Part shown: positions 31,391-52,164 of the stretch, in pieces | Layout of the letters: every line of letters starts with the position of its first letter | How positions within the stretch are numbered: the first letter of the stretch is position 1 | Source: a virus | Reading direction: 5' to 3' (one strand) | Virus record (IMG/VR): IMGVR_UViG_2974521666_000001 | DNA length: 64,000 nt | Notes under the pieces: generated by a model | The model's input: only the letters and a program-made list of their open reading frames with translations | Databases searched by the model: none | Told to the model about the DNA's origin: nothing | Position numbers and translations under genes: made by a program

Positions 31391-31399
31391 AGGCTCTCA

Positions 31400-31930: not shown

Positions 31931-31938
31931 GCTAAATC

Positions 31939-31978
31939 GGGGCAACGGTTTTCGGGGAGGTTCGATTCCTCCCGTCCC
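31939..31978 (+). ncRNA. tRNA-like minihelix TLM-3
   Basis: GGGGC-AACGGTTTTCG-GGGAGG-TTCGATT-CCTCCC-GTCCC. 40 nt, 8-nt gap after the stop. Confidence 0.75.
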
Positions 31979-32017
31979 ACTAGGCAACCAAAGTGGTTGC
32001 TAGAGAGGATGGGAACA

Positions 32018-32311
32018 ATGGCTACAATCAAGGCGCGCAACTTTCTCTGCCGCAACTGCCACGTGGACGTTAACGTCACCGAGTGTGGCTGCAACGCAGG
32101 CTCTTACTCAATCACCTCTTGGGATTGTGCTCAGTGCGGCATTGAGGTTGTGTCCAGCGGTGGTCGAGACGTTGACTGCTCCAAGTGCGGGGCCTGCTAC
32201 AACGGCTCCGGCCAGCGTCTTCGCAGCGATTGGCGTAGCAATCCATCGGTTTACGACGACAACGTCGGTGACCTGGAGGGCTACGAACTGCAGCACGCCA
32301 ACGACTGGTGA
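32018..32311 (+). CDS. Cys-rich (zinc-ribbon-like) protein (97 aa)
   Basis: ATG after GAGAGGATGG. Contains CRNC, CGC, CAQC and CSKCGAC pairs. Confidence 0.6.
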   Translation: MATIKARNFLCRNCHVDVNVTECGCNAGSYSITSWDCAQCGIEVVSSGGRDVDCSKCGACYNGSGQRLRSDWRSNPSVYDDNVGDLEGYELQHANDW

Positions 32312-32324
32312 CGTAATCACCGGA

Positions 32325-32364
32325 GGGCCAACGGTTTTCGTAGGGGTTCGATTCCCCTAGGCCC
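32325..32364 (+). ncRNA. tRNA-like minihelix TLM-4
   Basis: GGGCC-AACGGTTTTCG-TAGGGG-TTCGATT-CCCCTA-GGCCC. 40 nt, 13-nt gap after the stop. Confidence 0.75.
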
Positions 32365-32406
32365 GCTAGGTCGTTCGTACGGGACGACCTCACAGAAAGG
32401 ATGGAA

Positions 32407-32745
32407 ATGGCAGCACGAAAGATGAAGGTTGTCAAGTCGATTCAGGTCGAGAAGCCGACGAGGTTTGCCCGCGTTCGGAAGGGCAAGGGGCAGAACAGCA
32501 CTCGAGAGCTTCAGGCCCGGTCACTGAAGGCGGCGGCAAACCACGGTCAGCCGTGGAGCGACGACGAGGTGGCCCGAATCGTGGCCGGAATACAGAGAGA
32601 CGAAACGTCTTTCGAACTTGCGCTGGCTGTAGGACGAAGCTACTACAGCACCATGAGCGCCAGGTCACATGTGGCGTTTGCTATGCGCCACGCCAACGCC
32701 TTGGAGTTGGCCGTCAAGCAGGCAGCGCGGGCCAAGCACCACTGA
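32407..32745 (+). CDS. hypothetical protein (112 aa)
   Basis: ATG 32407 (or in-frame 32401) after GAAAGGATGG. Confidence 0.55.
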   Translation: MAARKMKVVKSIQVEKPTRFARVRKGKGQNSTRELQARSLKAAANHGQPWSDDEVARIVAGIQRDETSFELALAVGRSYYSTMSARSHVAFAMRHANALELAVKQAARAKHH

Positions 32746-32760
32746 CAACCCAATCGTGTA

Positions 32761-32801
32761 GCCCTGGTAAGGCGTACTGAGGTTCGATTCCTCAGCAGGG
32801 C
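32761..32801 (+). ncRNA. tRNA-like minihelix TLM-5
   Basis: GCCCTG-GTAAGGCGTA-CTGAGG-TTCGATT-CCTCAG-CAGGGC. 41 nt, 15-nt gap after the stop. Confidence 0.7.
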
Positions 32802-32844
32802 ACTTTGCCCGGCAAACCAGCCGGCAATTAGAGAGGATGGGAAA

Positions 32845-33012
32845 ATGGTGAATGTGTACAAGATTGACGGTTTGCAGCTGCAGGCGATCAGGGGTTATCT
32901 CAAGAACCCTGATACTCATACCCTTCGGATCATGGTTGATGAGGAGGGTGTGAAGGTCAAGTTCAATCAAGGGCCTTGGTCCCCACCACTCGGGGAACTT
33001 GAAAGGAACTGA
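32845..33012 (+). CDS. hypothetical small protein (55 aa), not in ORF track
   Basis: ATG 4 nt after GAGAGGATGG. Open frame MVNVYKIDGLQLQAIRGYLKNPDTHTLRIMVDEEGVKVKFNQGPWSPPLGELERN. Confidence 0.5.
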   Translation: MVNVYKIDGLQLQAIRGYLKNPDTHTLRIMVDEEGVKVKFNQGPWSPPLGELERN

Positions 33013-33013
33013 A

Positions 33014-33238
33014 ATGGCCGATATCCTATTGGCACATGGTGAAAGCACTTCAGGCACCAAACACACCCTGGAGATCGATCCAATCTACGGAAGTCATGAC
33101 TCAATTGATTGGCTGAAGTGGACTATCATGGGTCCCAACGGGAAACGGCACGCAAGTGTCAAGCTGACCTTGGCTGATGCCGAGGGCATTGCAAACCACC
33201 TGTTGGACATCGTAGAAGAGGCCCGTCGTAACGCATGA
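33014..33238 (+). CDS. hypothetical protein (74 aa)
   Basis: ATG 33014, 1 nt after the upstream stop, with a GAAAGGA RBS. Inside ORF 32999..33238. Confidence 0.55.
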   Translation: MADILLAHGESTSGTKHTLEIDPIYGSHDSIDWLKWTIMGPNGKRHASVKLTLADAEGIANHLLDIVEEARRNA

Positions 33239-33246
33239 CAGGGCGA

Positions 33247-33286
33247 GCCGCACTGGCAGACATCAAGGTTCGAGTCCTTGAGCGGC
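33247..33286 (+). ncRNA. tRNA-like minihelix TLM-6
   Basis: Same 40 nt as TLM-2. The 43-nt identity spans 33246-33288 and 31399-31441. 8-nt gap after the stop. Confidence 0.75.
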
Positions 33287-33333
33287 ACTAGGACAGTGGC
33301 ACGGGGCCACTGCCTTAACGAAAGAGGATGGAA

Positions 33334-34263
33334 ATGACCACCATTGAGAACAGTGTGAATGCAGTTGAGCTGATCGATCTGTCGGCAGCTTGCGAGAAGG
33401 CTGGAATCGGTGGGACAGTTCGCAATACGGAAGTTGGCACCGGTACGCTGTACGTGGTGGCCAAGCTTCCTGACGGGAACTGGGCTTTGGACTACGAAAC
33501 TGATGTGATCGACATTGCTGCTTTTCAGCAGGAGGGTTGGCTCGTTGTGTCCACGGCCACAGACGGCGAGGAGACAGAGCAGGATACCAAACCTGCTACG
33601 TACCAAGACTTCTTCGAAGGTTTGCCCACCTGGTCATACTTCTGGGACGGCCGAAACATTGACTGCCAGTACATCTTTACTGGCTGGAAGCAAAACAAGT
33701 ACGGCGACAACGTTCCTGCGTATGTCCACCACCGGTACATGACAACCAGCTTGATGTCCATCTTGGACCTGGATCACGAATGCCAGTGGGAGGCATTCAC
33801 AGTCAACGGTACGCCCAAGGAGGCCAGTCGCGATTTGCGGCAGGCAATCCGGACGATGTACTCGGCCTTGAAAGAGGCAGAGTCGTACAAGCAACTGCAT
33901 AAGGAAGAAGGTGAGCGGCTGGAGGCAGTCAAGCGTGATTTCCGAAAGCTGAACGAACACATCAATTCCTACGCTGAAGAAACCCACATGTGCGGCGACT
34001 ATGAGCGCCGTATCTACGGCTGGAACGAGACCTTCGAGGTCATGGAGCTCGAGGGCCGTGTTCGCGATTACAATGTGCCCGTACGGGTCCCTGGAGTGTT
34101 CGGGGACACTGAGGTCTGGGTTTCGGGTATCAAGGCCCGTACTCCAGAAGAGGCACGGGAACAGGTGCAGCGCATGACCGCTCAGGAAGTGCTGAACAAC
34201 CTGTATCAATCCGGTTACAGCATGCCGGAGTGGACCGTCGGCGATAGTACTCCGAGGGCCTAG
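33334..34263 (+). CDS. hypothetical protein (309 aa)
   Basis: ATG 33334 (or in-frame 33328) after AAGAGGATGG. Confidence 0.6.
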   Translation: MTTIENSVNAVELIDLSAACEKAGIGGTVRNTEVGTGTLYVVAKLPDGNWALDYETDVIDIAAFQQEGWLVVSTATDGEETEQDTKPATYQDFFEGLPTWSYFWDGRNIDCQYIFTGWKQNKYGDNVPAYVHHRYMTTSLMSILDLDHECQWEAFTVNGTPKEASRDLRQAIRTMYSALKEAESYKQLHKEEGERLEAVKRDFRKLNEHINSYAEETHMCGDYERRIYGWNETFEVMELEGRVRDYNVPVRVPGVFGDTEVWVSGIKARTPEEAREQVQRMTAQEVLNNLYQSGYSMPEWTVGDSTPRA

Positions 34264-34278
34264 CCCCAAAGCAGGGCA

Positions 34279-34318
34279 GGGTGACTGGCAGACATCAGGG
34301 TTCGAGTCCCTGACACCC
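34279..34318 (+). ncRNA. tRNA-like minihelix TLM-7
   Basis: GGGTG-ACTGGCAGACA-TCAGGG-TTCGAGT-CCCTGA-CACCC. 40 nt, 15-nt gap after the stop. Confidence 0.75.
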
Positions 34319-34363
34319 ACAAAGCCGTAGGCGTTCTACGGCCTAGCAAGAGAGGATGGAACA

Positions 34364-34597
34364 ATGCCGCTACCAAGGGGGTTCAAGTTCATACGCTGCC
34401 CCGAATGCAAACGCAAAGGTGTGTCATGTAGATTCAGCGGGCGAACCGGGGAGGACTACTGGCAATGCCGCTACTGCAGCTGGTACTGCTATGCAGGAGG
34501 GGAGGACCGGATTGACGTTGAGCGTCGACGAGCACTTGCTGCAGCCAATCCCGGTGAGCCTATATGGGTTACAGCACTGGACGATGACACACTGTAA
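34364..34597 (+). CDS. zinc-ribbon-like protein (77 aa)
   Basis: ATG 5 nt after AGAGGATGG. Contains CPEC..C and CRYCSWYC. Confidence 0.6.
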   Translation: MPLPRGFKFIRCPECKRKGVSCRFSGRTGEDYWQCRYCSWYCYAGGEDRIDVERRRALAAANPGEPIWVTALDDDTL

Positions 34598-34603
34598 CGG
34601 CAA

Positions 34604-34643
34604 GCCTGACTGGAAGGCACCGACGTTCAAGCCGTCGGCTGGC
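34604..34643 (+). ncRNA. tRNA-like minihelix TLM-8 (slightly degenerate)
   Basis: GCCTG-ACTGGAAGGCA-CCGACG-TTCAAGC-CGTCGG-CTGGC. 40 nt with one U-U mismatch in the outer stem. 6-nt gap after the stop. Confidence 0.6.
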
Positions 34644-34685
34644 GCGGGGTGAGCCACTATGGCTTACTACAAGAAAGGGGATGGA

Positions 34686-35051
34686 ATGAAGCACGTTATC
34701 GCTATTTCAGGCAATGACCTTGCGTACCTTCGCAAGGCAGCCTTGTCGGCGTTTCAAGAGGCCGGTCAGATTGGCGTACTACGCATTTACATTACCGATG
34801 ACGGTAAGCTCATGTTTGGAGCACGGGGTCACGTAACCAAAGTGATTGGTAGGCCCATTAAGGCTTCCGATGAAGAGCGCGAAATGGGTTTGAGTGCCCC
34901 AAGCGGAAATCCGTACGCCAACATTGACGACGATGAAGATGCGCAAGATGCTGCTGAGGCAGTAGGCCTCTCGCTTGAAGAACGTGTTGCACACCTGGAG
35001 GAACTGGTCAAGGGCGAGAACATCGTTGTGATCAACCTCTCAAAGTCCTAG
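34686..35051 (+). CDS. hypothetical protein (121 aa)
   Basis: ATG 34686 after AAAGGGGATGG, inside ORF 34659..35051. Confidence 0.55.
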   Translation: MKHVIAISGNDLAYLRKAALSAFQEAGQIGVLRIYITDDGKLMFGARGHVTKVIGRPIKASDEEREMGLSAPSGNPYANIDDDEDAQDAAEAVGLSLEERVAHLEELVKGENIVVINLSKS

Positions 35052-35063
35052 CAGCGCTAGGCA

Positions 35064-35106
35064 GCCGGCCACGGTTGGTTAATAGTGGTTCGAGTCCACT
35101 ACCGGC
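35064..35106 (+). ncRNA. tRNA-like minihelix TLM-9
   Basis: GCCGG-CCACGGTTGGTTAA-TAGTGG-TTCGAGT-CCACTA-CCGGC. 43 nt with a 14-nt linker. 12-nt gap after the stop. Confidence 0.7.
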
Positions 35107-35153
35107 ACGAAGGCAACAACCCGTTGCCTTACATCAAGATTCGAGGATGGAAC

Positions 35154-35555
35154 ATGAAACGTAATGTGAAAGAAGTCGTGGTTGCATTTCTTGTGACCAT
35201 GGGCCTGTTCTTCGCTCTCGCAGCAATCCACAACGCCGCCGTAACCAATGTGGCCAAGGCAGATCCAGGCGTTGGCTGCGAGACAATTCGTTGGGGTTTC
35301 CTAGGAAGCCAAAGGCGCACCATCTGCGACGGGCCGCGCAGGCCTGACGGCAGCTGGGAGCGTTTGCGTCTGATCTGGACGCCAGCGGGTTACGTGCCAC
35401 GCTACACCTACTGCGGTAGCTACTCATGCTCTTCCAGCGGTGGCTACTACCGGGAGGAGACGCTTCAGGGCAAGGAAACGTATGTGGTGTTTGACCACAA
35501 CGTGCTGCCCGATGAGCCGGGTTGGCTGCCACCGGGAACGGACATTATCCGATGA
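35154..35555 (+). CDS. secreted or membrane-anchored protein (133 aa)
   Basis: ATG 3 nt after CGAGGATGG. N-terminal hydrophobic segment VVVAFLVTMGLFFALAAI. Cys-rich mature part. Confidence 0.6.
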   Translation: MKRNVKEVVVAFLVTMGLFFALAAIHNAAVTNVAKADPGVGCETIRWGFLGSQRRTICDGPRRPDGSWERLRLIWTPAGYVPRYTYCGSYSCSSSGGYYREETLQGKETYVVFDHNVLPDEPGWLPPGTDIIR

Positions 35556-35734
35556 GAGACTGCAGCGAGCATGGAACCAATAGCAACGTATGCGATTTCG
35601 CCGGCTGCTTTGGCCCGGCAAAACCGTACCGTTGCATCTGCGGTGACTTCAAAACGGATTCCCCGAGAGTGCTAGACGTGCATATCCTCTGGGCGAATAA
35701 GTTCAGAGCCAATGTGGAGCACGGCTGGCCGTAG
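35552..35734 (+). CDS. Cys-rich small protein (60 aa)
   Basis: ATGA coupling. Inside ORF 35522..35734. Confidence 0.5.
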   Translation: MRDCSEHGTNSNVCDFAGCFGPAKPYRCICGDFKTDSPRVLDVHILWANKFRANVEHGWP

Positions 35735-35742
35735 CCACAAGA

Positions 35743-35782
35743 GCCGCAATGGCATACACCCAGGTTCGAGTCCTGGGGCGGC
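35743..35782 (+). ncRNA. tRNA-like minihelix TLM-10
   Basis: GCCGC-AATGGCATACA-CCCAGG-TTCGAGT-CCTGGG-GCGGC. 40 nt, 8-nt gap after the stop. Confidence 0.75.
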
Positions 35783-35828
35783 ACGAGTCCTGAGCAATCG
35801 GCTTGGGGCACTATGAAAGAGGATGGAA

Positions 35829-36050
35829 ATGCGAGTAGCAGATGCAGTGAGGAAGACCTCTGGCATTCATCGGCTCAAGGTGGGCGAGATGTTCACCGAC
35901 GCAGATGGTGATTGGGAGGTGACCAGAGAGCCTGTGGTTGATGGCGATTGGGTCGTCGTGTACCTGAGGCCCGTGCCCTTTCACGAGGGCCAGCGCGCTA
36001 GGGCCTACCGATATCCCTTGTCAACTCAGGTGAAGATGCTGCGTAAGTAA
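35829..36050 (+). CDS. hypothetical protein (73 aa)
   Basis: ATG 35829 (or in-frame 35823) after AAGAGGATGG. Confidence 0.55.
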   Translation: MRVADAVRKTSGIHRLKVGEMFTDADGDWEVTREPVVDGDWVVVYLRPVPFHEGQRARAYRYPLSTQVKMLRK

Positions 36051-36094
36051 AGCACTCTGCTGTGGCTACGGGGATTGTGCCAAGTAGAGAGATA

Positions 36095-36159
36095 CCCTGC
36101 AACGGTTTTGGCGTGTTCGAGGGTTACACACCAACAGAGGTTCGATTCCTCTGGCAGGG
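36095..36159 (+). ncRNA. expanded tRNA-like element TLM-11 (extra arm in linker)
   Basis: CCCTGC-[34-nt linker AACGGTTTTGGCGTGTTCGAGGGTTACACACCAA]-CAGAGG-TTCGATT-CCTCTG-GCAGGG. The linker can form GGCGTG/CACACC around a TTCGAGG-containing loop. Confidence 0.6.
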
Positions 36160-36202
36160 ACGACGGTGGGCCACCAGGTCTACCGAACGAAAGGGGATGG
36201 AA

Positions 36203-36619
36203 ATGCGTACGTTTACCTTTGGGACCCAGTATGTCCCAGAGACAAAGGCAGTCCTGAAGTGGGGCAAGTACGCCGACGGCAGCACTGCACTACGTGTTGT
36301 GTCGGAGTACGGTGAGCCTCTGGCTACGGCCACAGTCTGCCTGCGCAACTACAACCTTCAGCCGGGTAAAGGCAATGTCTTCATCTACGGGGACTACAGC
36401 GAACATGTCGGAGTGTTCGAGGCCCTGCGGAAGGCCGGGATTGTCGGTGACCCTGTGAACCGAATTCCCATGGGAGGCTTTGGCGCTTTCGCGTACGAGG
36501 CTCCCCTGCTGTGGAGCGAGCACGAGCCAACCTGTGAGGGTATGGCAGACGTGGACTACCACACCCAAGTTGATGCCATGCTCGAACGAGTGGCACAGCA
36601 AGACAACAAGTCCCAGTAG
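36203..36619 (+). CDS. hypothetical protein (138 aa)
   Basis: ATG 36203 (or 36197) after AAAGGGGATGG. The upstream part of ORF 36062.. covers TLM-11 and is rejected. Confidence 0.55.
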   Translation: MRTFTFGTQYVPETKAVLKWGKYADGSTALRVVSEYGEPLATATVCLRNYNLQPGKGNVFIYGDYSEHVGVFEALRKAGIVGDPVNRIPMGGFGAFAYEAPLLWSEHEPTCEGMADVDYHTQVDAMLERVAQQDNKSQ

Positions 36620-36627
36620 ACTGGGCA

Positions 36628-36667
36628 GCCCGAAAGGCATACACGCTGGTTCGAGTCCAGCGCGGGC
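36628..36667 (+). ncRNA. tRNA-like minihelix TLM-12
   Basis: GCCCG-AAAGGCATACA-CGCTGG-TTCGAGT-CCAGCG-CGGGC. 40 nt, 8-nt gap after the stop. Confidence 0.75.
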
Positions 36668-36709
36668 ACGAGCGCCATAGTGGCGTATCAAGAAAGGGGA
36701 TGGACTGAG

Positions 36710-36916
36710 TTGCATAGAGAAACGGAATTCGTGCTCGCCCGCGAGCTCAGCGATGGCAGCCTACCTCACATGCCACCGGCAGATGAGCTGCCACATCGTG
36801 GCCGAATCACAAGGATTCTCAACGACTCTGGGGTGTTGACAATCGAGTGTGAGGACGGTATGCTCAGCCGAGGGATGAACGCCCCGGTTGAACGGTACAA
36901 GAGGGAGGCTCAGTGA
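36710..36916 (+). CDS. hypothetical protein (68 aa)
   Basis: TTG 36710, 6 nt after AAAGGGGATGG. The track start GTG 36680 lies inside the spacer hairpin. Confidence 0.45.
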   Translation: MHRETEFVLARELSDGSLPHMPPADELPHRGRITRILNDSGVLTIECEDGMLSRGMNAPVERYKREAQ

Positions 36917-37038
36917 ACAAACTGCGGAAGTTGTTGCGAGCCTACAGAGTTTCGCAGCACAGACGCCGGCTGAATGACGAAGCCCATATCGCTTGGGCCA
37001 GATCACTACTGGCAGAACGTGAACGACCGGTAGACTAG
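36913..37038 (+). CDS. hypothetical small protein (41 aa), not in ORF track
   Basis: GTGA coupling. Its stop lies 12 nt before TLM-13, matching the stop-then-minihelix rule. Confidence 0.35.
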   Translation: MNKLRKLLRAYRVSQHRRRLNDEAHIAWARSLLAERERPVD

Positions 37039-37050
37039 TACAGCACAGGA

Positions 37051-37090
37051 GTCCGACTGGCAGACATCAGGGTTCGAGTCCCTGACGGAC
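37051..37090 (+). ncRNA. tRNA-like minihelix TLM-13
   Basis: GTCCG-ACTGGCAGACA-TCAGGG-TTCGAGT-CCCTGA-CGGAC. 40 nt. The core is identical to TLM-7 with a compensated outer stem. Confidence 0.75.
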
Positions 37091-37148
37091 ACGACTTGGA
37101 GCCACGAGGGAGACTCCAAGCACCACAACAGAAAGAGGATGGGAAACA

Positions 37149-38345
37149 ATGGGCGCAGAAACCATGGAGTGGTACAACAACTTCTGCCTGATCGGGCACA
37201 CCAATCAGCGTGGAAAGAGTTGGCACTATATGGAGTCCATGCAGGGAGAGGAGCCGAATCATTACCCCGAGGGCATCCCGTATGACGATGTTGTACGGCG
37301 GCTATTCAATTGGAAGCCAATGCTTACCCGTACGGCAAACATGATTCCATGTGAGTTGCTACGGGATGAGGCAGGACAGCCCTTGACCGACGACCAGGGA
37401 CGCCGTCGCTACGAACCTGAGCCGTCAGTATGGGTTCAGCGTGTGGACAGCAACGGCAACCCAGTGTTCCACGAGGGCCGTCCGGTCAACGTTCCCATGA
37501 AACTGGTAGAGGTCCATGACAAACGGGGCCTGGTCCGTAGCGACAACTACCTGGAGCTGGGGCACCCCGGCAAGAACTACAAGATCCACGACTACGAGGA
37601 GTGGCTCTTGCAGTTGCTATCCAACGTGATTGGGGACACTCTCGACATTTGGTCAGCAATCCTGTTGCGCAATGGCGCTCAGGCCTGTGTCCAGGTGGCT
37701 CTTCCTGAGACGGCTCACGACAGCACAACTGGAATGGACTTTGTTCCATACGTCCACTGCTATACGAGCCTAGACAGTAGTCTGGCTACCACTTTCGCTG
37801 GCCAAACGCTGTTGATCGTGTGCGACAACACGATGACTGCGGCCAACGCAAGAGCAGCCAAGGCAGGGCGGCAGTACAAGGCACGTCACACGTCCGGAAG
37901 CCTTGAGACCCACAAGATCTCTGAGGTCCGGCAAGCCCTGTCGATTATTCACCAAACCGCAGACAGCTCTATGGAATTCTTCCACAAGCTGGCTGCCATT
38001 GAAGTGCCCAACAAGAAGTGGATTGAGGTGCTAGACATCATCATTCCACCGGGTGATCCCAACAAGGACAGCACCAGGACCGTTCGTGGTCGTGAGTCCA
38101 AGAGGGAACACCTGAACAGCGTGTACCAAAGTGACCCTATGGCGAATACCTGGAAAGGTACTGGCCTTGGGGTGGTACAGGCAATCAACACCTACGCAAC
38201 CCACTACGCGCCACTGCGCGGCCGCTCCCGTGTTCAGGGCAACGCTGCCAAGCTGGTGGACGGTGAGTTTGCCAAGGTGGACAGCAAGAGCGTGCAGGCC
38301 CTTGCTCAAGTGATGGATATGCCAGAGTTGTTGACTACCAACTAG
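37149..38345 (+). CDS. hypothetical protein (398 aa), possibly DUF932/TIGR03299-like phage-plasmid protein
   Basis: ATG after AAGAGGATGG. The family guess is from memory of its size and N-terminal features only. Confidence 0.35.
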   Translation: MGAETMEWYNNFCLIGHTNQRGKSWHYMESMQGEEPNHYPEGIPYDDVVRRLFNWKPMLTRTANMIPCELLRDEAGQPLTDDQGRRRYEPEPSVWVQRVDSNGNPVFHEGRPVNVPMKLVEVHDKRGLVRSDNYLELGHPGKNYKIHDYEEWLLQLLSNVIGDTLDIWSAILLRNGAQACVQVALPETAHDSTTGMDFVPYVHCYTSLDSSLATTFAGQTLLIVCDNTMTAANARAAKAGRQYKARHTSGSLETHKISEVRQALSIIHQTADSSMEFFHKLAAIEVPNKKWIEVLDIIIPPGDPNKDSTRTVRGRESKREHLNSVYQSDPMANTWKGTGLGVVQAINTYATHYAPLRGRSRVQGNAAKLVDGEFAKVDSKSVQALAQVMDMPELLTTN

Positions 38346-38353
38346 TCTGGTGC

Positions 38354-38393
38354 GGGTGACTGGCAGCCACCGGGGTTCAAGGCCCCGGCACCC
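38354..38393 (+). ncRNA. tRNA-like minihelix TLM-14
   Basis: GGGTG-ACTGGCAGCCA-CCGGGG-TTCAAGG-CCCCGG-CACCC. 40 nt, 8-nt gap after the stop. Last copy of the array. Confidence 0.7.
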
Positions 38394-38565
38394 ACTTACT
38401 CGTGATGGATAACAGCCTGGGTTACTAGCCTGAGCATCTCAGTGTTAGTCCTACGGCTATCTCATTTTTCGTGCCAAGCAGGCTCTCGTGTGTTATGATC
38501 CGGGGCAGGGTTAGGGCCTAGGCCCGACGCCCTAGACTCCCTACGGAACACACAGAGGATGGCCC

Positions 38566-40391: not shown

Positions 40392-42152
40392 GTGCCACAA
40401 TCAGACCTCGGAGTTGCCCTTCACAGTAGGCCGTTCCAGCTAGCAGGCGCACGGTTTGCCATGCGACATAAGAACGTACTGATTGCCGATGAACCTGGAC
40501 TCGGTAAGACCATCCAGGCCATTGCAGCTGTAACAGGTAACAAGACTACGGGTTCCGTGCTGATTGTGGCACCCAAAACCGCTGCGTACGTAACATGGCC
40601 AGCTGAGCTACGGCGCTGGTTACACGATCTTGCACCAGATGACCCTGTGCGTATCATCACCGGCAATGCAGACAAGCGTACTCGCATAGCGTTGCTACGA
40701 GATACGGTCAAGTGGGAGACCTCCAGCCAGCGCGCGGGCCAACGCCAGTGGGTTATCGTATCTCCTAACTACTTACGCTTCAAGATTGAGTGCGATGACA
40801 AGGGGCGCTACGTCCATGACGACAAGGGCAACAAGATCATCACCCCGGTACGTGAGGCCCTGAAGCCTCTGCTGTACATACAGTGGGCTGCCGTGATTGT
40901 TGACGAGGCCCACGAAACCCTAGCTGGTGCTACGGGAAACTTGAAGAAGCAAAGTGCTCAGAGCAGAGGCCTACGTCTGCTTGACATTCGTGAAGACGGA
41001 ATGCGACTTGCGTTGTCTGGCACGCCCTTTCGTGGTAAGCACGAGAACATCTGGGGCATCCTCAACTGGATTGACCCTGTGGAGTACAACGCCAATGGTG
41101 GCCCTAACTCTTACTGGAAGTGGGTCTACAGGTACTTCCAGGTCTACCACGACGACGTATTCGATACGGACGTTATCGGAAAGCTGCGCAGTGAACGCGA
41201 CTTGCGAGCTGCATTAAAGCCGTACATGATTCGGCGCACCAAGAAGAAAGTGCTACCGGAGCTACCGGATAAGCAATACGGTGGCACACCGCTGTACCCA
41301 AAGAAGAAGCCTCCCAAAGAGCTACTGGACGCCGTAGCCCGCGCTGCGGAGGAGCAGAAGGCCAATCCCAAGGCAAGGCTAGGTTACCGGAAGGCACAAG
41401 CCAAGCTGGCTGGGTGGTACGACAAGAACAACCCCGTTGCAGTATGGCTTCCGATGGACGGCAAGCAACGTACAGCCTACAACCAGATGAAGACCCAGGC
41501 CATGGCCAACATCGAAGGTGGTACGCTGCTAGCCAATTCGTTGTTGGCTGAGATGACAAGGCTTAAGCAGTTTGCGAATAGCTATGGGAGACTAGACGAA
41601 CAGGGCAATTACCACCCTGATATGCCCTCGAACAAATTCGACTGGATACTCCAGTTCCTTAATGAGAGAGGCATTTACGGCCCAGAACCAAGCGGCAACA
41701 GGATCATCATTGCATCCCAGTTCACTAAGCACATCAACCTGTTTGCGCAAGTCTTGTTAGAACAGTACAAGATACCGAATTACAAGATCACCGGTGCCAC
41801 CAGTGCAGATGAGAGACTACGGATTCAAGAGGAATTCCAGTCTGGGCAGACGCCGGCTGGTAAGCCGAGTCCGGAAGTGTTGCTACTGAATACGAAAGCT
41901 GGTGGCGTGGGCATCACCCTGGATGCTGCCGACGACATGATCGTGGTGGACAGTACCCACAACGTGGATGATCAAGTGCAACTAGAAGATCGGATTCACC
42001 GCATCTCCAGGATACATAGCGTTACTATCTGGAACCTTGTTACCAAGGGTACTATCGACGAGAAGATCTTACGAGCCACCCGTAAGACGGGCCGTAGTCT
42101 TAAGCGTATCTTGGACACACCAGAGGCAGCTAAGGACTTATTGGAGAGCTGA
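40392..42152 (+). CDS. SNF2/Rad54-family helicase
   Basis: LIADEPGLGKT (motif I), VIVDEAHE (DEAH box), and LLLNTKAGGVGITL with QLEDRIHRI (motifs V/VI). Confidence 0.85.
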   Translation: MPQSDLGVALHSRPFQLAGARFAMRHKNVLIADEPGLGKTIQAIAAVTGNKTTGSVLIVAPKTAAYVTWPAELRRWLHDLAPDDPVRIITGNADKRTRIALLRDTVKWETSSQRAGQRQWVIVSPNYLRFKIECDDKGRYVHDDKGNKIITPVREALKPLLYIQWAAVIVDEAHETLAGATGNLKKQSAQSRGLRLLDIREDGMRLALSGTPFRGKHENIWGILNWIDPVEYNANGGPNSYWKWVYRYFQVYHDDVFDTDVIGKLRSERDLRAALKPYMIRRTKKKVLPELPDKQYGGTPLYPKKKPPKELLDAVARAAEEQKANPKARLGYRKAQAKLAGWYDKNNPVAVWLPMDGKQRTAYNQMKTQAMANIEGGTLLANSLLAEMTRLKQFANSYGRLDEQGNYHPDMPSNKFDWILQFLNERGIYGPEPSGNRIIIASQFTKHINLFAQVLLEQYKIPNYKITGATSADERLRIQEEFQSGQTPAGKPSPEVLLLNTKAGGVGITLDAADDMIVVDSTHNVDDQVQLEDRIHRISRIHSVTIWNLVTKGTIDEKILRATRKTGRSLKRILDTPEAAKDLLES

Positions 42153-42154
42153 GC

Positions 42155-42457
42155 ATGACGTGCTTCTTACTTACAGTAGGTTCTGGCCTCTTGGGCATCG
42201 TCGCAGGTAGTTGGGTCACGTGGCGTGTGAACGAGCGGCTCTTTAATCGTCTGCAGGCCCGTCGGGCCACCCTGGAGCTGATCAGGGAACTGGAAAACCG
42301 TAGAGTCGCAACGGAATCCGACCGTGAGCACCTTGTGCGGGCCAGGGCCGGAGCACCAGCGCGTGTCAACGACGGGATGACTACTAAGCCAGGCACGCTC
42401 GCCCGGTACCTGCGTGATACAGCTGCTGCTAACAAATTCGCCCCGAAACGGGGTTGA
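42155..42457 (+). CDS. membrane-anchored hypothetical protein (100 aa)
   Basis: N-terminal hydrophobic segment CFLLTVGSGLLGIVAGSWV. Confidence 0.5.
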   Translation: MTCFLLTVGSGLLGIVAGSWVTWRVNERLFNRLQARRATLELIRELENRRVATESDREHLVRARAGAPARVNDGMTTKPGTLARYLRDTAAANKFAPKRG

Positions 42458-42538
42458 CAGGCCGCTGGCGGTGGTGTATCGTTGTCGTCGTCAGGCCACC
42501 GGGGCATCCCGGAAGAACGAAAAGGGAAGAGACACAAC

Positions 42539-42988
42539 ATGACTGTTGAGACGACCGAAAAGACGGGCCGTGGCGGCGCTCGTGGACCTCGTGTGTTCAA
42601 GGACACGCCGACTCCCCGCGACCGGGTGATCAGTGAGTCGTTGGCCGACAAGGTCAAAGAGCTCACCGGCAAGACCATTTCGCCGGAGGACTGCCGCGCC
42701 GTCAAGTTCAGTCTCTCTCGGTGGTACGAAGACCCTGCCACCAAGGAACTGCTGAACGACATGGACGCTCAGCTCAAGAAGGCCAAGGCCAAGGAGAAGG
42801 CCGAGAAGGCCCGCAAGCTCCTGGAAGAGGCCCAGCGGGAGCTGGAAGACGCTGAGGAAGACGACGATTCGGACGACGCGTCGGACGAGGACACCCAGGC
42901 CGCTGCTGCGGACGAGGACGACGAGGACGACGAGGACTCGTTGTTCGACGACGAGGACGAGGACGACAAGGTCAGCGCGACCTTCTGA
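42539..42988 (+). CDS. protein with extremely acidic C-terminal tail (149 aa)
   Basis: ATG 42539 after AAAAGGGAAGAG, inside ORF 42482... The last ~45 aa are almost entirely D/E. Confidence 0.55.
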   Translation: MTVETTEKTGRGGARGPRVFKDTPTPRDRVISESLADKVKELTGKTISPEDCRAVKFSLSRWYEDPATKELLNDMDAQLKKAKAKEKAEKARKLLEEAQRELEDAEEDDDSDDASDEDTQAAAADEDDEDDEDSLFDDEDEDDKVSATF

Positions 42989-44151
42989 TCCGGTCCTCTA
43001 GGGCAGCTACCGAATTGGGGATTAAGTAGCCCCACTACCATCCTCTGGTGAAGAAGATTGCACGGCCTCCCCGTACAGCCACGCAATGTCTCCCCAGTTC
43101 GGTAGCTCTAAAGGGTAGAGAGACATCGACACTCAGCACGTATTGAGTAGCCCCTCGGCAAGCTGAAAACGTCTGTCTCTCTACTCCTTAGGGCAGGACC
43201 TGCCCTCCAGTGACCGGGGTACGCACCAGCGAAGAGTCAAGTACAGTCCCTCCAAGCCTGGAAGACCCAGTAGCACAGAGCCTCTGCCCCGGTACACGGG
43301 AATTGTTCTTACACAGTTGAATATACTTCGAGCCTGATCGATAGGCAGTAGCAATGCTGCTGAAAGGCCGGTTGATCCCCGGTCGCCTAGTAATCCTAGG
43401 TAACTCAGGCAATCCAGTACCTTCGCCCATCTGAACGGTGGTGGGACGCAGGCAAGCAGAGCGGGCCAGGCCGATACGGTGAGGCCAGTCGTGTACGCAG
43501 CGACTCAAACGCTATAAGCTGCAAGCCTGATGGTTGGTACATGGGAGGGATACATAGTGCGAGTAGGCATACAAGTGCGGTATCCATGGAGGCCCCAAGG
43601 CGTGGTTGGCGAATCACGTAGGAGCTGAAGAGCACAAGTAGCGGGCACGTGAAAGTGCGATGGCGTGGTGCATTCTGTGGCTCAAAAGGCGACGGAACAC
43701 CTGGGGCAGCACGTCGTCAGATCGTATGGCCTGGTCTCCCTAAGGGACCACCAAAGCGCTCAGGCAAGAGCACTACCATTGGGAGGTAGCAACGGTGTAA
43801 AAGCCGTTTCCGGTTCGACTCCGGCAAAGCAAAAGTCTGTCCCCGCTAGCAACGAAAGTACCCTAATCCCTAGGGCTTACGCCAACTAGGGCACCGGAAG
43901 GCTCGCAAGGCCGACTGGTGTTGCTAGACAAAGTAGTGCAGGTAGGGGGAGGCCACCCCTGACCGAATCGAAACGTCAGCGAGTAGTTCGCTAGTGTAGG
44001 TAGTGGTTCCGCCAATCAAACGGGACCGGGTACGGTGGCTGCAAGTGGGAGCTTGCGGACAAGGAACTAACACATAAGGTTCTGAAAGGCCACTGGGATT
44101 AGGGTCAAGTCTACGCCCTTTCCACCCCTAACAACAAGAGGATGGTAACTC
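42989..44151 (+). ncRNA. 1.16-kb ORF-free, highly base-paired region (candidate large structured RNA or replication origin)
   Basis: No credible ORF or RBS. 16-bp helix 43005-43020/43092-43107, 13-bp helix 43113-43125/43174-43186, many local hairpins, and a T-arm-like CCGG-TTCGACT-CCGG at 43810-43824. Confidence 0.4.
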
Positions 44152-45321
44152 ATGGATAACGTTCCGTTGCTACGCAACTCAGAACGGCACGACTTCAAGC
44201 GATGCCCCTTGCGCTGGTGGTGGCGCTATGGCGAGCACCTCGTGCCTGTCAACTTCTCTACTGGCCCACTGGTTTTCGGAAGCCTTGGCCACCTTGCCCT
44301 AGCAGAGCACTACATTCCAGGCCGCAAGCGTGGAATCGACCCACGCGAGACCTGGGACAAGATTACCCAAGAGCTATGGGACTCAGTCAAAGTCGAAAAG
44401 TTCGTCGACGACGAGATTGAGGGTACTTGGGAGGACGCCCGCGTGCTGGGCCACGAAATGCTCGGGCACTACCTGGAACACTACGGCAATGACGAGCACT
44501 GGGAAGTCCTGTGGACAGAAGACCAGTTCCACCAACGTATTCCACACCCTGATGACCTACGCAAGCAGGCCAAGAGACCTCGCCCCATTGTGGAATACGT
44601 AGGGACCATAGACCTGATCGTTCGGAATCACATCACAGGTCTGATCGAGTACGTGGACCACAAGTTCATGAAAACCATAGAGGTAGATCACCTTTACATT
44701 GATGACCAGAACGGTGGTTACCTTGCCATCGGCACACACGAGCTGCGAAAAAGGGGGCTGATTGGGCCTCGAGAGTCAGTTCGTGTGCTGGTCTACAACT
44801 TCCTGCGCAAGGCTAAGCCGGACCAAAGGCCCCGTAACGCTGATGGCAAGTACACCAACCTTCCTACCAAGGAAGACTACGTCAAAGCCATTCAGGCATA
44901 CCTAGACCAGCGTGGCAAAGGCGATATCGGAGACTACATCTCCTCGAGGGCCAAGAAAGAAGAATACGAATCCCTTGCTAGGGGATTGAATTTGGTTGTG
45001 CTGGGCGAGGTCTCTAAGAGTCAGCCTGCCCCGTACTTCCACCGGGAGCGCATTGAGCGCACCAATGCCGAACGCAACGTACAGATCAAGCGCATCGGCC
45101 AAGAGGCTTTGGTTATGGAGCAGTTCAGGTCTCGCCGGCTGCCCATCTACAAGACACCAACACGTGACTGCAAATGGGACTGTAGCTTTTTCGACCTCTG
45201 CCAGATCCACGAAAGCGGTGGAGACGTAGAGTTTGCCAAGAGCCACATGTTCCGCAAAGAAGACCCGTACCAAGAGTACTACTCTGGTGCAGAGTCACCG
45301 AAACTGTTGCGCGACAGGTAG
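44152..45321 (+). CDS. RecB/Cas4-family exonuclease
   Basis: ATG after AAGAGGATGG. N-terminal Cys (RCPLRWWW) plus a C-terminal CKWDCSFFDLC cluster around a PD-(D/E)XK-type core. Confidence 0.7.
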   Translation: MDNVPLLRNSERHDFKRCPLRWWWRYGEHLVPVNFSTGPLVFGSLGHLALAEHYIPGRKRGIDPRETWDKITQELWDSVKVEKFVDDEIEGTWEDARVLGHEMLGHYLEHYGNDEHWEVLWTEDQFHQRIPHPDDLRKQAKRPRPIVEYVGTIDLIVRNHITGLIEYVDHKFMKTIEVDHLYIDDQNGGYLAIGTHELRKRGLIGPRESVRVLVYNFLRKAKPDQRPRNADGKYTNLPTKEDYVKAIQAYLDQRGKGDIGDYISSRAKKEEYESLARGLNLVVLGEVSKSQPAPYFHRERIERTNAERNVQIKRIGQEALVMEQFRSRRLPIYKTPTRDCKWDCSFFDLCQIHESGGDVEFAKSHMFRKEDPYQEYYSGAESPKLLRDR

Positions 45322-48355: not shown

Positions 48356-50664
48356 CGAAACCTGTACTGTCAGAGCAGGAGACTGAGAAACTCTTCAAGT
48401 TCTGGCTTGCCGAGGGGTTCAAGTTCCGTAGGCGCACTAGCAAAGAGATGCAGGCCGAACCTAAGAAGTACCAAGAGCGCCTGCGCATGGAATTCGGCGT
48501 AATCCGTAGCGTACCAGGGTATATCGACTACTTTCTCATGGTGAGCGACTTGGTGCGTTGGGCCAAAGACAATGGCATTCTAGTGGGTCCAGGCCGTGGT
48601 AGTGCAGCCGGCAGTCTGTGTTGCTGGCTTTTGCGTATCACCGAGATTGACCCACTGCTGTACCCCATGCTCTTTGAGCGGTTCCTGGACCCTACGCGTA
48701 CAGACCCTCCAGATATCGATATCGACTTTGAGGACGAGAGGCGTTGGGAGGTTATTCAATACGCCCAGGAAAAGTACGGATACGATAGGGTTGCTAACAT
48801 TCTGACGTTCACCCGGTACAAGGGCAAGAACAGCCTGGATGACGTAGCGCGCGTATACGAAATCCCAGAGTGGAAGATTGAGAACATCAAGGGTAAGCTG
48901 GTGGAGCGGCAAGACGGCCACCCACGGTTCTCCATGACACTGCTTGACACCTTCGATAGCTACGACGACGTTGCCGAAACAGTTAGGCGTACACCTGAAT
49001 TGCAGTACGCGCCACGGCTGGAGGGCATCAACGGGCAGTCCAACTACCGTACGGCCGGTATCCACCCCGCTGGCATTGTGATCAGTGGCGTACCGTTGAC
49101 TCAGATTACAGCCACCTACGAAAAGCAGAGTGGTGCCCAGCGCGGAAGCGGCGTTGCGTACGACAAGAAAGACAGTGAGTACCTAGGTCTTCTGAAGGTT
49201 GACTTCCTTAGCCTAACTACGCTTACCGGCATCCGAGCGACACTAGAACACCTACAGTGGGTGCGTGACCGAATCGGCATGACTATCGAGGAGTTCTACC
49301 AGATACCACTAGATGACCCTAAGGTTTTCGAGGCGTTTCGCGCTGGTGACGTATTGGGCATATTCCAGTTTGAGGGTGTGGCAACACGGCGCGTGCTCAA
49401 AGGCGTACAGCCAGATAAGTTTATGGACCTGGTAGACGTAAACGCACTGAGCCGCCCTGGTGGCGACGATACGGCGTACATCAAGGCCAAGAGCACAGGC
49501 CAGCTGCCAGAGCCGGTCCACCCCACAGTTGATGACCACATCCAATGGACCTGGGGCACTATCGTTTACCAGGAACAGATTCTTCTAATCCTTAGGGACT
49601 TTGGAGGATTCGCGCCGGCTGAGGTCAACCGCATTAGGAAGATCATCTCGGCCAAGGAAGACTCAAGTGTCTTCAACGAGTTCCTCGAAAGGTTCGTGGA
49701 AGGTGCTGCGTCTCACGGCGTTTCACGCGAGAAGGCCGTGGGTGTGTGGCAGAAGATGGTCAACGCTACAGGGTACGCGTTCAACATCAGTCACGCTGTG
49801 TGTTATAGCGATACGGCCTACCGTCAGATGTGGCTTAAGGTGTACTACCCTGAGTTCTACCTAGGGCAGCTACTCAAGTGTCCCGACACAGCAGAAGGCT
49901 TGGAGCGCCGTAGGAAGTTGATCGTGGAGGCCGAACGCAAGGGTATTAAGGTCAATAGCCTGGATCTGCATGAGTCACAGGCAGGCTGGAGCTTGCGCGG
50001 CGGCAGCCTGTACGCTGGCTTTACAGCCGTGAAGGGCATTGGCCTCAAGACCGCTGAGAAGATTGTCCAGTGGCGTGATGAACACAAAACAGAGGCTCTT
50101 GAGTGGTCTAGCCTTACAGCCGTTTCTGGCATTGGTGACGGCAGAGTAAAAGTGATGCGCCAGTTCGCAGAAGACGATGACCCGTTTGGCGTGCTGGCCA
50201 CCAAACGCCTACTTGATAGCATACGTAGGGAATTTGAGGCAGGCAAATTTCCTGGTGTTCCAGAGCCGACGCACGTCAGCATCGACATTGTGGAAGAAGA
50301 TGAGTACGTAGTCTTTATGGGCGTGCTGCGCAAGAAGACCTACAAAGACACTGTGCAGCAGCGTCTTAAGTACGGGGGAGACGGCCTCACCCGAGAGAAA
50401 ATCCTAGAGGAGCTAGATGAACCGCACCTACTGAAGTACGCAACCCTGGACGTTGACGACGAGTACGACGAGCCAATACGCTTGCGGGTGAGCCGGAAGA
50501 AGTACCCACAGTACGCCGGTCTGATTGCCAACGCCCGCGCTGGTGTGGACGTAATCCTGGTGACAGGCTACGTGACTCACTTTGGAGGCTTGGCCATTCA
50601 GGTCAAGGAACTAATCGTAATCAATCCGGAAGAGGATGAAACACAGGATGACTTATCGTTCTGA
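48352..50664 (+). CDS. dnaE: DNA polymerase III alpha, palm-thumb-fingers-OB fragment
   Basis: YFLMVSDLVRWAKDNGILVGPGRGSAAGS and FERFLDPTRTDPPDIDIDFE are DnaE palm motifs. HhH-like GIGLKTAEKI. Confidence 0.85.
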   Translation: MTKPVLSEQETEKLFKFWLAEGFKFRRRTSKEMQAEPKKYQERLRMEFGVIRSVPGYIDYFLMVSDLVRWAKDNGILVGPGRGSAAGSLCCWLLRITEIDPLLYPMLFERFLDPTRTDPPDIDIDFEDERRWEVIQYAQEKYGYDRVANILTFTRYKGKNSLDDVARVYEIPEWKIENIKGKLVERQDGHPRFSMTLLDTFDSYDDVAETVRRTPELQYAPRLEGINGQSNYRTAGIHPAGIVISGVPLTQITATYEKQSGAQRGSGVAYDKKDSEYLGLLKVDFLSLTTLTGIRATLEHLQWVRDRIGMTIEEFYQIPLDDPKVFEAFRAGDVLGIFQFEGVATRRVLKGVQPDKFMDLVDVNALSRPGGDDTAYIKAKSTGQLPEPVHPTVDDHIQWTWGTIVYQEQILLILRDFGGFAPAEVNRIRKIISAKEDSSVFNEFLERFVEGAASHGVSREKAVGVWQKMVNATGYAFNISHAVCYSDTAYRQMWLKVYYPEFYLGQLLKCPDTAEGLERRRKLIVEAERKGIKVNSLDLHESQAGWSLRGGSLYAGFTAVKGIGLKTAEKIVQWRDEHKTEALEWSSLTAVSGIGDGRVKVMRQFAEDDDPFGVLATKRLLDSIRREFEAGKFPGVPEPTHVSIDIVEEDEYVVFMGVLRKKTYKDTVQQRLKYGGDGLTREKILEELDEPHLLKYATLDVDDEYDEPIRLRVSRKKYPQYAGLIANARAGVDVILVTGYVTHFGGLAIQVKELIVINPEEDETQDDLSF

Positions 50665-51163
50665 AGTAGTAGACAAGGCATTTCAGAAGGCCCTTGAGAC
50701 ACTACGCGGCTGGGAGAACGTTCACAGCGCCGTTGTGGACTTTGGCCTGGGGGACAGTGCCTCTCGAGAGCTGCCCCACGACAAGGTAGTGACAGATAAC
50801 GTACCGCTTGACGACGGGGCAAACGCTATCGGCAGCTACGTTGTTGGCACGGCACCGGTCCATGAGATCGTTCACCCCTTTGACGACCGGATACAGGGTG
50901 CTCGTATCTACAAGAGCGAAGGGAAGCATAGGGTCCTATTGGATCTGGACTGCCCACACGTGTACGTTCCCAGCAGCACACCGGGCCACGGGCACTTGAT
51001 CATTGATGTGCCACAGGACTGGAACACCTACAAGCGCTTGCTGCAGCTGTTGGGAGACATGGGGATTCTTCAGTACGGCTACGTGGACGCCAGCTTCAAG
51101 CGGGAGGAAACGTGGCTCCGAGCACCTGGAGTGCCCAAGAGCCAAGGAGGTATGGGCCTGTGA
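50648..51163 (+). CDS. hypothetical protein (171 aa)
   Basis: ATG 50648 or 50636, both in frame. Overlaps the dnaE end. Confidence 0.5.
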   Translation: MTYRSEVVDKAFQKALETLRGWENVHSAVVDFGLGDSASRELPHDKVVTDNVPLDDGANAIGSYVVGTAPVHEIVHPFDDRIQGARIYKSEGKHRVLLDLDCPHVYVPSSTPGHGHLIIDVPQDWNTYKRLLQLLGDMGILQYGYVDASFKREETWLRAPGVPKSQGGMGL

Positions 51164-52164
51164 ACGACGCAGACACACTCATCAGCACGACCTTGACACA
51201 CGTCATGAACCAAGGCATGTACATTGCAACCGAGAAGGATTCGTCTTGGGAGCTATGCGACTACCAAACAATTCCCATGACAGACATCAGGTCTCGTATC
51301 TTCACCAACCCTAACAGGCCATTGAACATCGTGACGGCCGTAGCTCGCTTCACCTGGTTGATGGCGGGCAACAATCGTGTTGAGGACATAGCGTTTTACG
51401 AGCCGAAAGTCCGCAACTTCAGTGACGACAAGCTCACCGTTCCTGGAAGTGATTACGGCCTTAGGATCTTCCAGCCACGACCGGGCCTGAACCAGATCGA
51501 GGGAGTCGTTGAGCGGCTACGCCATTCACCGTACTCCAGACAGGCAGCTGCGGTTGTGTGGCAACCGGAAGACGCTGTGCGCCAAAGTGGGGATATCCCT
51601 TGCACATTCGGTATGTTCTTCAGGCTCAGGCCCTGCCCTGACGGGGAGCACGCCTACGCGTTGCACATGACCACAGTCATGAGGTCCAATAACGCTTTCC
51701 GTATCCTGCCTTTCAACGTGTTTGAGTTCACGATGCTGCACGAGCTGGTGGCTGCTGAACTTGGTGTGGGCCTAGGGAGCTACAAGGTGTGGGCTGCCTC
51801 GATGCACGCGTACGACAACCCACGCGAAACGCCTGCCACGAGGGCTATTGCGGATGGTGAAGTGTTCAAGAGCATTAGGATGGACCCTATGCCTCAGCGA
51901 GATGGTTCACCCCTTGGCACAGACCCGTTGGTGTGCGCACGGCACTTGGCCATACTGGAGGCTAGCCTACGGCACGCCTGTGACGAAGACGAATACGGCA
52001 GTATCGTTTTGGAGGCCTTCAATGTGCTGCCCAATTACTGGCTTGACCTGTTTGGCGTGCTTGCAGCCTGGGGTGCGGCCAAGCGTAACTGGGGACCACA
52101 GTACAGCATGATTAGCAACAGCGAACTACGGGACCTAACGGCAGCTGTCTGCCAGAAAGTGTAA
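51160..52164 (+). CDS. ThyA-family enzyme (divergent thymidylate synthase or dUMP-modifying homologue)
   Basis: GTGA start. DIPCTFGMFF aligns with ThyA PCH, MRSNNAFRILPFNV with RSxDxxLGLPFN, and SMHAYDN with DTHLY. Confidence 0.65.
   Translation: MNDADTLISTTLTHVMNQGMYIATEKDSSWELCDYQTIPMTDIRSRIFTNPNRPLNIVTAVARFTWLMAGNNRVEDIAFYEPKVRNFSDDKLTVPGSDYGLRIFQPRPGLNQIEGVVERLRHSPYSRQAAAVVWQPEDAVRQSGDIPCTFGMFFRLRPCPDGEHAYALHMTTVMRSNNAFRILPFNVFEFTMLHELVAAELGVGLGSYKVWAASMHAYDNPRETPATRAIADGEVFKSIRMDPMPQRDGSPLGTDPLVCARHLAILEASLRHACDEDEYGSIVLEAFNVLPNYWLDLFGVLAAWGAAKRNWGPQYSMISNSELRDLTAAVCQKV

Follow-up and report, generated by a model that had tools for sequence, protein, structure and literature searches.

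The DNA analysed here (hereinafter designated the window) is a 64,000-nt stretch from a virus, IMG/VR record IMGVR_UViG_2974521666_000001, and the locus in question is an unannotated gap of 1,163 nt at positions 42989-44151, which in the RefSeq annotation lies between the end of gp68 (42988) and the start of gp69 (44152). Window positions 42900-44250 correspond at 100% identity to positions 50447-51797 of Mycobacterium phage Send513 (cluster R; JF704112 / NC_042033; record coordinate = window coordinate + 7547), and 11 other cluster R records match the same interval at 98.9-99.6%. Our analysis indicates that the gap very probably holds two independent RNA elements on the + strand, a GOLLD RNA and a separate element composed of two long hairpins, H1 and H2 (hereinafter designated H1-H2).

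The flanking genes all lie on the + strand, as do both RNA elements of the gap. Upstream, gp66 encodes a SNF2-type helicase and gp68 has no Pfam domain and carries the PHROG label methyltransferase; downstream, gp69 encodes a PD-(D/E)XK / Cas4-like nuclease and gp70 an AAA_24 / Sak4-like protein. An earlier note on this DNA had described the gap as unusually long and free of open reading frames (ORFs). Its length is indeed exceptional, as other intergenic gaps in the 13-kb neighbourhood measure at most 220 nt, and the ORFs inside it are all short, the longest comprising 106 aa. Among the helices drawn in that note, a 16-bp helix with one G-U pair, a 13-bp helix and a hairpin at 43191-43205 form all of their pairs (16/16, 13/13 and 6/6, respectively), as does a T-arm-like stem at 43810-43824 (4/4 pairs), which turns out to belong to a tRNA relic within the linker of GOLLD. 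A further hairpin, at 43386-43400, forms five of its six pairs, the remaining one not forming.

RNA annotation at the gap is absent from all GenBank records of cluster R examined, and ARAGORN finds no tRNA or tmRNA gene in the window. Folding of 42989-43657 is more stable than that of shuffled sequences (+ strand, z = -3.1; - strand, z = -1.9). A blastn search of the gap ("distant" mode) against the phage collection returns cluster R genomes only, and these genomes, being 99% identical, are too close for covariation analysis. The comparisons described below were made with more distant relatives.

The GOLLD RNA

The sole Rfam match in the whole window is GOLLD (RF02032), at 43658-44118 on the + strand, with 180.4 bits (gathering score 150) and E = 4e-49, and it spans model positions 1-416 of 416. 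The earlier note had considered a giant phage RNA such as GOLLD or ROOL and had proposed a cmscan run as a check; with a full-length match above the gathering score, that suggestion proves correct and the question is settled. A permissive Rfam scan (E <= 1, 42500-44700) yields nothing besides GOLLD, including no ROOL, group I/II intron or tmRNA. The same note had held that no known RNA family could be assigned from sequence alone, a view that does not stand, because the locus is already listed as "JF704112.1:51205-51666 Mycobacterium phage Send513" (window 43658-44119) in the GOLLD alignment supplement of Kretsch et al. 2025, together with other cluster R and many cluster M phages (PMC12286853). 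The GOLLD identity of the Send513 locus is thus already known and catalogued. The published alignment covers the 3' end only, its reference row being "GOLLD_env-38_3end" (PMC12286853).

The matched region comprises three parts. The first hairpin of the Rfam model (43658-43716, + strand; model positions 1-59) displays the conserved UCAAAAG loop, and its stem, helix 15 of the alignment A2 described below, is 98% paired. It is followed by the variable linker (43717-43825, + strand), known as J13/15 in the literature, which carries an insertion of 67 nt relative to the RF02032 model. The conserved 3' core (43826-44118, + strand; RF02032 alignment) begins with AAAGCAAAAGUCU and contains the pseudoknot, in which 43844-43853 pairs with 43986-43996 at 10/10 positions as read from the cmscan alignment. 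In the solved GOLLD cages, the conserved 3'-domain pseudoknot forms a kissing interaction between copies. One consensus hairpin of the 3' domain (model positions ~248-265) is missing from the Send513 cmscan alignment, and the uncultured viral contig L006 lacks the same stretch. Since optional stems vary among the solved GOLLDs too (PMC12990946), the missing hairpin represents within-family variation. We also observed an 11-nt perfect complement within the 3' domain, between 43860-43870 (ACCCUAAUCCC) and 44095-44105 (GGGAUUAGGGU), which the Rfam consensus structure does not include and other GOLLD loci do not share. A scan of genome contigs with a GOLLD 3' motif finds 13 loci, none of them actinobacterial.

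The linker holds the tRNA relic, at 43773-43824. It retains a D-arm-like stem (CUACC/GGUAG) with GG in the loop, an anticodon-arm-like stem (AACGG/CCGUU) of 5 bp with an 8-nt loop, and the T-arm at 43810-43824 (CCGG-UUCGACU-CCGG) with a canonical UUCGA T-loop. The acceptor stem is absent, and neither ARAGORN nor the Rfam tRNA model calls the relic as a tRNA. It aligns with a true tRNA-Gln in L006 and a true tRNA-Pro in L005, another uncultured viral contig, both at the same position just before AAAGCAAAAGUCU. The presence of tRNAs or pseudo-tRNAs within linker J13/15 of GOLLD is documented (PMC6582537, PMC12286853, PMC12990946). The Send513 GOLLD is phage-borne, and this decayed linker tRNA is the only trace of a tRNA in the window.

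Similarity extends upstream of the Rfam match. With a word size of 7, blastn reaches ~100 nt upstream of the Rfam start and matches PegLeg (cluster M), L005 and L006. Side-by-side reading of these sequences reveals a common module that consists of a closing stem, a GNRA-capped hairpin, GAAAGG, two further hairpins and then GCAAUCCA. In Send513, this module is a four-way junction that opens the 5' domain, with a closing stem formed by 43332-43337 and 43403-43408, three hairpins, the GAAAGG junction and GCAAUCCA at 43409-43416. The distance from GCAATCCA to the next hairpin, the first of the Rfam model, is 253-260 nt in every lineage, and a pattern search based on this spacing retrieves eight more viral contigs of ~80 kb, giving a total of ~7 lineages at 49-86% identity. 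The resulting 5' domain (43332-43657, + strand; ~325 nt) is common to Send513, PegLeg and Reindeer (cluster M), L006, L005 and L053-L060.

The 5' domain is supported by covariation. Alignment A2 contains nine sequences and covers window positions 43319-43721; its consensus structure was obtained with RNAalifold, and controls were generated by sliding the pairing partners. The consensus comprises 78 pairs (a count to which the slid controls do not apply), of which 37 show compensatory changes compared with 4-11 in the slid controls. The fraction of paired cells is 92.7% (33-47% in the controls), and the covariation score is 0.42 (<=0.10 in the controls), a value reached by 0 of 500 shuffles. 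All 5'-domain helices are intact in Send513. A covariance model of the first module (hereinafter designated R1) scores 68 bits in the window and 56 bits in L005, which is outside its training set. In env-38, the Rfam model begins at ~nt 414-421 and a 5' domain of ~415 nt lies immediately upstream; it does not align with that of Send513, and its sole match is one of 24 nt to PegLeg, in the common hairpin.

The position of the GOLLD 5' end is indicated by PegLeg, in which the homologous RNA (2519-3260, ~742 nt) is bracketed by a tRNA-Asn that ends at 2513 and a tRNA-Gln that starts at 3270. The 5' module begins 5 nt past the tRNA-Asn, and the Rfam match ends 9 nt before the tRNA-Gln, which places the GOLLD 5' end at the junction stem. 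By this comparison, the Send513 GOLLD RNA would span about 43332-44118, or ~787 nt. Direct reading finds a -10-like hexamer, TATACT (43322-43327, + strand), 4 nt before the first GOLLD stem, and L053, L055 and L058, which have no upstream tRNA, have a TATTGT or TATAGT box 10 nt upstream of that stem. The TATACT box is not called by a consensus promoter scan and is a possible, if weak, candidate for a GOLLD promoter. No terminator-like site was found on the + strand within 42400-44600.

Two annotations of PegLeg overlap this RNA. The second tRNA-Asn (gp93; L036 2515-2586, record 55514-55585) coincides with the R1 junction match at 2519-2602, is not called as a tRNA by ARAGORN or the Rfam tRNA model, and is probably a mis-annotation. 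A small coding sequence at 55684-55827 lies inside the GOLLD 5' domain.

The H1-H2 element and the variable site downstream of it

The two most striking helices of the gap lie upstream of GOLLD. H1 pairs 43005-43020 with 43092-43107 around a 71-nt loop, and H2 pairs 43113-43125 with 43174-43186 around a 48-nt loop, both on the + strand. The fold of 42996-43210 is far more stable than that of shuffles (z = -4.9), and the element has no Rfam match. With gp68 as the tblastn query, the phage collection yields the same gene order, with a gap of 224-269 nt, in Cuke, Indlulamithi and Fowlmouth, cultured mycobacteriophages of other genera, and all three gaps fold into equivalents of both hairpins. Across four lineages, 96.6% of H1-H2 cells are paired and compensatory changes affect 11 of the 29 pairs, compared with 0-2 in slid controls; taken singly, H1 has 95% of its cells paired, and H2 has 98% with 5 compensatory pairs. 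Extended to seven lineages, H1 retains 14 consensus pairs, 9 of them compensatory. The G-U pairs can be read as pairs only on the + strand, which identifies H1-H2 as a + strand RNA. The element directly follows gp68 in all seven lineages, five of which have no GOLLD at the site. Searches for further relatives in IMG/VR, by DNA pattern or gp68 protein alignment, gave nothing new.

The H3 hairpin (GGGCAG-GAC-CUGCCC; 43191-43205, + strand) is the first sequence absent from the GOLLD-less relatives, as it falls inside the stretch missing from L045 and L050. It is followed by a lineage-specific spacer (43206-43321, + strand) with no similarity to any relative, and folding of 43187-43331 is indistinguishable from that of shuffles (z = -1.5). 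Neither H2 nor H3 has the GC-rich hairpin and U run of an intrinsic terminator, UUUU following H2 only in L045.

A search with the gp69 nuclease finds contigs that have this gene order, at 59-73% protein identity, and what lies between H2 and the nuclease gene differs among them. L045 and L050 have almost nothing there; in L045, 40 nt separate the matches to window positions 40393-43134 from those to 44143 and beyond. L049 (WBZU01000153.1) has ~1.3 kb of protein-coding ORFs, and L048 has a GOLLD 3' end, at which its contig terminates. GOLLD therefore occupies a variable site, the insert corresponding to 43187-44118, with H1 and H2 outside the insert and kept in L045, L050, L049 and L048. The L049 cargo (2292-3438) consists of a 183-aa ORF and several smaller ones, with three tRNA genes ~2.7 kb downstream (6165-6527); as this cargo differs, the gp68-nuclease junction is a hotspot for different cargo. 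These comparisons indicate that H1-H2 is an element independent of GOLLD, not a part of it, and that it predates the GOLLD insertion.

Two side observations concern short repeats. TTAGGG is found at either edge of the stretch that the GOLLD-less relatives lack (43188-43193 and 44099-44104) and once at the empty site of L050 (~1279-1284), and may represent insertion-junction microhomology or chance. A 13-nt repeat with 12/13 matching positions is present as ATTAAGTAGCCCC in the H1 loop (43021-43033) and as ATTGAGTAGCCCC in the H2 loop (43142-43154). ATTAAGTAG follows the H1 stem in L049 too, and the repeat may reflect a partial duplication by which the H2 loop of cluster R grew longer.

The earlier note had treated the region as one unit. 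It is unlikely that the whole 1.16 kb is a single giant RNA, an unusually long GOLLD extended at its 5' end by H1, H2 and the spacer. The parts do share a strand and are separated by no recognisable terminator, the promoter proposed for GOLLD is weak, and part of the H1 loop (43064-43076) and of the GOLLD 3' domain (43942-43954) make a 13-nt, 92% complementary pair. However, we estimate that ~0.5 pairs as good as this one are expected by chance in 1.25 kb, and H1-H2 is kept, with covarying pairs, in five lineages in which the gap is either too short for GOLLD or filled with ORFs. The PegLeg tRNAs bracket GOLLD at the junction stem, and the spacer has neither a homologue nor a significant fold. 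The comparative data make H1-H2 and GOLLD appear as separate evolutionary and structural units, the two long helices belonging to an element that is conserved in relatives without GOLLD at the site.

We consider it quite improbable that this GOLLD has lost its function and survives only as the decaying remains of an insertion, in the manner of the tRNA relic within it. Its linker tRNA has decayed in a phage without tRNA genes, one model hairpin is missing, and its score of 180 bits compares with 216-295 bits at other loci. Nevertheless, the match spans all of the model and exceeds the gathering score, the pseudoknot is complete, the 5'-domain helices are intact, and GOLLD is kept in 12/12 cluster R records of the phage collection, which represent ten different phages from the USA, South Africa and Japan. 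The hairpin is also missing from L006, whose tRNA is intact, so its absence looks like a subtype feature rather than decay.

Also raised in the earlier note was a replication origin; the inverted repeats would then be initiator-bound DNA structures. The gap does contain long inverted repeats and lies between the SNF2-type helicase and the recombination/replication genes, but it has no iteron families (direct repeats are short and two-copy only), no AT-rich stretch (the GC content of 0.56 equals that of the window) and no skew change. In addition, ~68% of it (787/1,163 nt) is explained by a full-length RNA-family match plus a covarying 5' domain, and G-U pairs are kept only on the + strand, which points to RNA and makes an origin hardly plausible.

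The notion that the gap encodes small proteins, which derives from the automatic annotation of JIND1 (L043 2560-3619; record 61530-62589) with five hypothetical proteins of 32-50 aa across the GOLLD and H1-H2 region, can safely be set aside and the five proteins are almost certainly spurious, as the gap ORFs have no PHROGs matches and are interrupted by 1-2-nt indels between near-identical cluster R genomes, the other cluster R records annotate nothing there, and covarying RNA helices fully account for the region.

The H1 loop and a start-associated motif

The H1 loop of the H1-H2 element contains an invariant motif that is antisense to sequences preceding start codons. On the + strand of the window, AGAGGATGG occurs in 12 copies compared with 0.48 expected, each positioned 3-7 nt upstream of a start codon. 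Of these, ten fall within the block 30319-38562, one is at gp69 (44137-44145) and one at 57704-57712. AGAGGATGG looks like a phage-specific start-associated motif. Its copies often stand just behind a short hairpin. Cuke has the same GGATGG-type motif before ~15 early genes (L066 10271-20090). The sole antisense copy of AGAGGATGG in the window is CCATCCTCT, located in the H1 loop.

The H1 loop motif UACCAUCCUCU (43036-43046, + strand), with its CCAUCC core, is antisense to the start-associated AGAGGAUGG(UA). It forms an 11-nt perfect complement with the start-associated ribosome-binding motif of gp69, AGAGGAUGGUA (44137-44147, + strand), for which 2000 loop shuffles give no equal or better match and which is reported independently by a repeat finder. 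CCAUCC is invariant in the H1 loop of 7/7 lineages, usually as CCAUCCUC, and the loop motif of L045 and L050 matches the corresponding position at their nuclease gene over 7-9 nt.

These features suggest how H1-H2 might act. The H1 loop displays CCAUCCUC, the exact antisense of the (A)GAGGAUGG found before many start codons, and could pair with those ribosome-binding sites (RBSs) and lower translation, whether in cis (gp69), in trans (the early-gene block) or in both ways. An anti-RBS RNA is the most likely mechanism of H1-H2 suggested by its sequence, and we regard it as a lead rather than a result. As a tentative proposal, which we rate as conceivable rather than probable, H1-H2 would be an undescribed phage regulatory RNA present in at least four mycobacteriophage genera (Papyrusvirus, Cukevirus, Fowlmouthvirus and Indlulamithivirus), whose CCAUCC(UC) loop pairs with the (A)GAGGAUGG RBSs of the early genes and the nuclease gene and turns their translation down once the replication-gene transcript appears, GOLLD having inserted between the regulator and its nearest target.

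Several points weigh against the interpretation of the two elements given here. For H1-H2, the complementarity between the loop and the nuclease RBS is significant only in Send513, being equalled by 12% of shuffles in L045 and 7% in L050, and the L049 loop has no match to its nuclease RBS. The seven H1 lineages are related, and their agreement does not amount to seven independent tests. For GOLLD, R1 has no matches in the AT-rich GOLLD loci, a result that agrees with the description of the GOLLD 5' region in the literature as less conserved; together with the lack of alignment to the env-38 5' domain, this means that the Send513 5' domain can only tentatively be equated with stems P1-P12 of the solved structures. 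The absence of one Rfam 3' hairpin makes the copy number per assembly unpredictable. The -10-like box would set the transcript start 1-3 nt inside the first stem, and as no recognisable terminator follows 44118, GOLLD may be cut from a longer transcript that also contains H1-H2. We infer the transcript ends, the promoter and any processing from sequence.

Comparison with known systems and significance

Small RNAs that pair with RBSs through C-rich loops include the mycobacterial 6C/B11 and the Firmicutes RsaE/RoxS. H1-H2 resembles them in combining a stable hairpin with a pyrimidine-rich loop complementary to a purine-rich RBS, a likeness that is a functional analogy only. Unlike these RNAs, to which it has no sequence or Rfam kinship, H1-H2 is phage-encoded, and its loop fits a phage-specific 9-nt motif rather than a generic Shine-Dalgarno sequence. 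Cluster K mycobacteriophages carry start-associated sequences, longer than the Shine-Dalgarno sequence, just upstream of a subset of start codons. AGAGGATGG is like them in placement but differs in sequence and phage group, and we know of no antisense partner described for the cluster K motif.

For GOLLD, cage structures have been solved for the env-38 14-mer (PDB 9MEE) and the S. agalactiae 12-mer (PDB 9L0R) (PMC12286853, PMC12990946). Like the solved GOLLDs, that of Send513 is phage-borne, ~0.8 kb long, and has the full 3' domain with its pseudoknot, a variable linker that hosts a tRNA, and a less conserved 5' domain upstream. Unlike them, it comes without tRNA genes, its linker tRNA has decayed and one 3' hairpin is gone, and it is known here from sequence; its 5' domain is of a GC-rich subtype that cannot be aligned to that of env-38. 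By analogy with the solved structures, the Send513 GOLLD most likely forms an RNA-only cage, a protein-free multi-copy nanocage that would fold during infection with the linker and tRNA relic facing inward. Among the closest counterparts are also the GOLLDs of cluster M (PegLeg, Bongo and Reindeer) and of Mycobacterium tRNA arrays (PMC6582537), which share the covarying 5' architecture and the 253-260 nt spacing from GCAAUCCA. The cluster M GOLLDs are tightly bracketed by tRNAs in large tRNA arrays, whereas the Send513 copy stands alone between gp68 and the nuclease gene, and the nucleotide identity between them is only ~49%.

Some short words of the gap, listed as repeats or sites in the earlier note, fared unevenly. 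AGTAGCCCC is present twice in the gap, within the 13-nt repeat of the H1 and H2 loops, and the anti-motif CCATCCTCT is real. TAGCAACG, by contrast, is enriched across the window, with 12 copies compared with 1.4 expected (e.g. 3512, 13691, 40690 and 54562), and is therefore not specific to the gap. Five TAGCAACG copies extend to the near-palindrome TAGCAACGCTA, the two gap copies lacking the GCTA extension, and TAGCAACG could be a protein-binding or methylation site. CCCCTGACC was rejected as a meaningful site, as it has only two copies in the window, about the number expected by chance, and its gap copy lies within a GOLLD hairpin.

Beyond what has been published, the analysis adds the ~325-nt 5' domain of an actinophage GOLLD subtype, with covariation support and likely RNA boundaries, and the assignment of the two most striking helices to what appears to be a separate conserved element with a putative anti-RBS loop; the insertion polymorphism at the gp68-nuclease site is also among the new results. 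The function of GOLLD has been an open question since 2009, and the cage structures of 2025 left it unanswered. Cluster R phages offer a clean system in which to address it, as the cluster R phage Candle is described as lytic and reported with 0 tRNAs (PMC6658696), the host M. smegmatis is genetically tractable, and there are no confounding phage tRNA genes. Moreover, natural relatives differ at the exact site, carrying GOLLD, being empty or, in one case, holding other genes. If H1-H2 does regulate translation, it would represent a new kind of phage gene-timing device.

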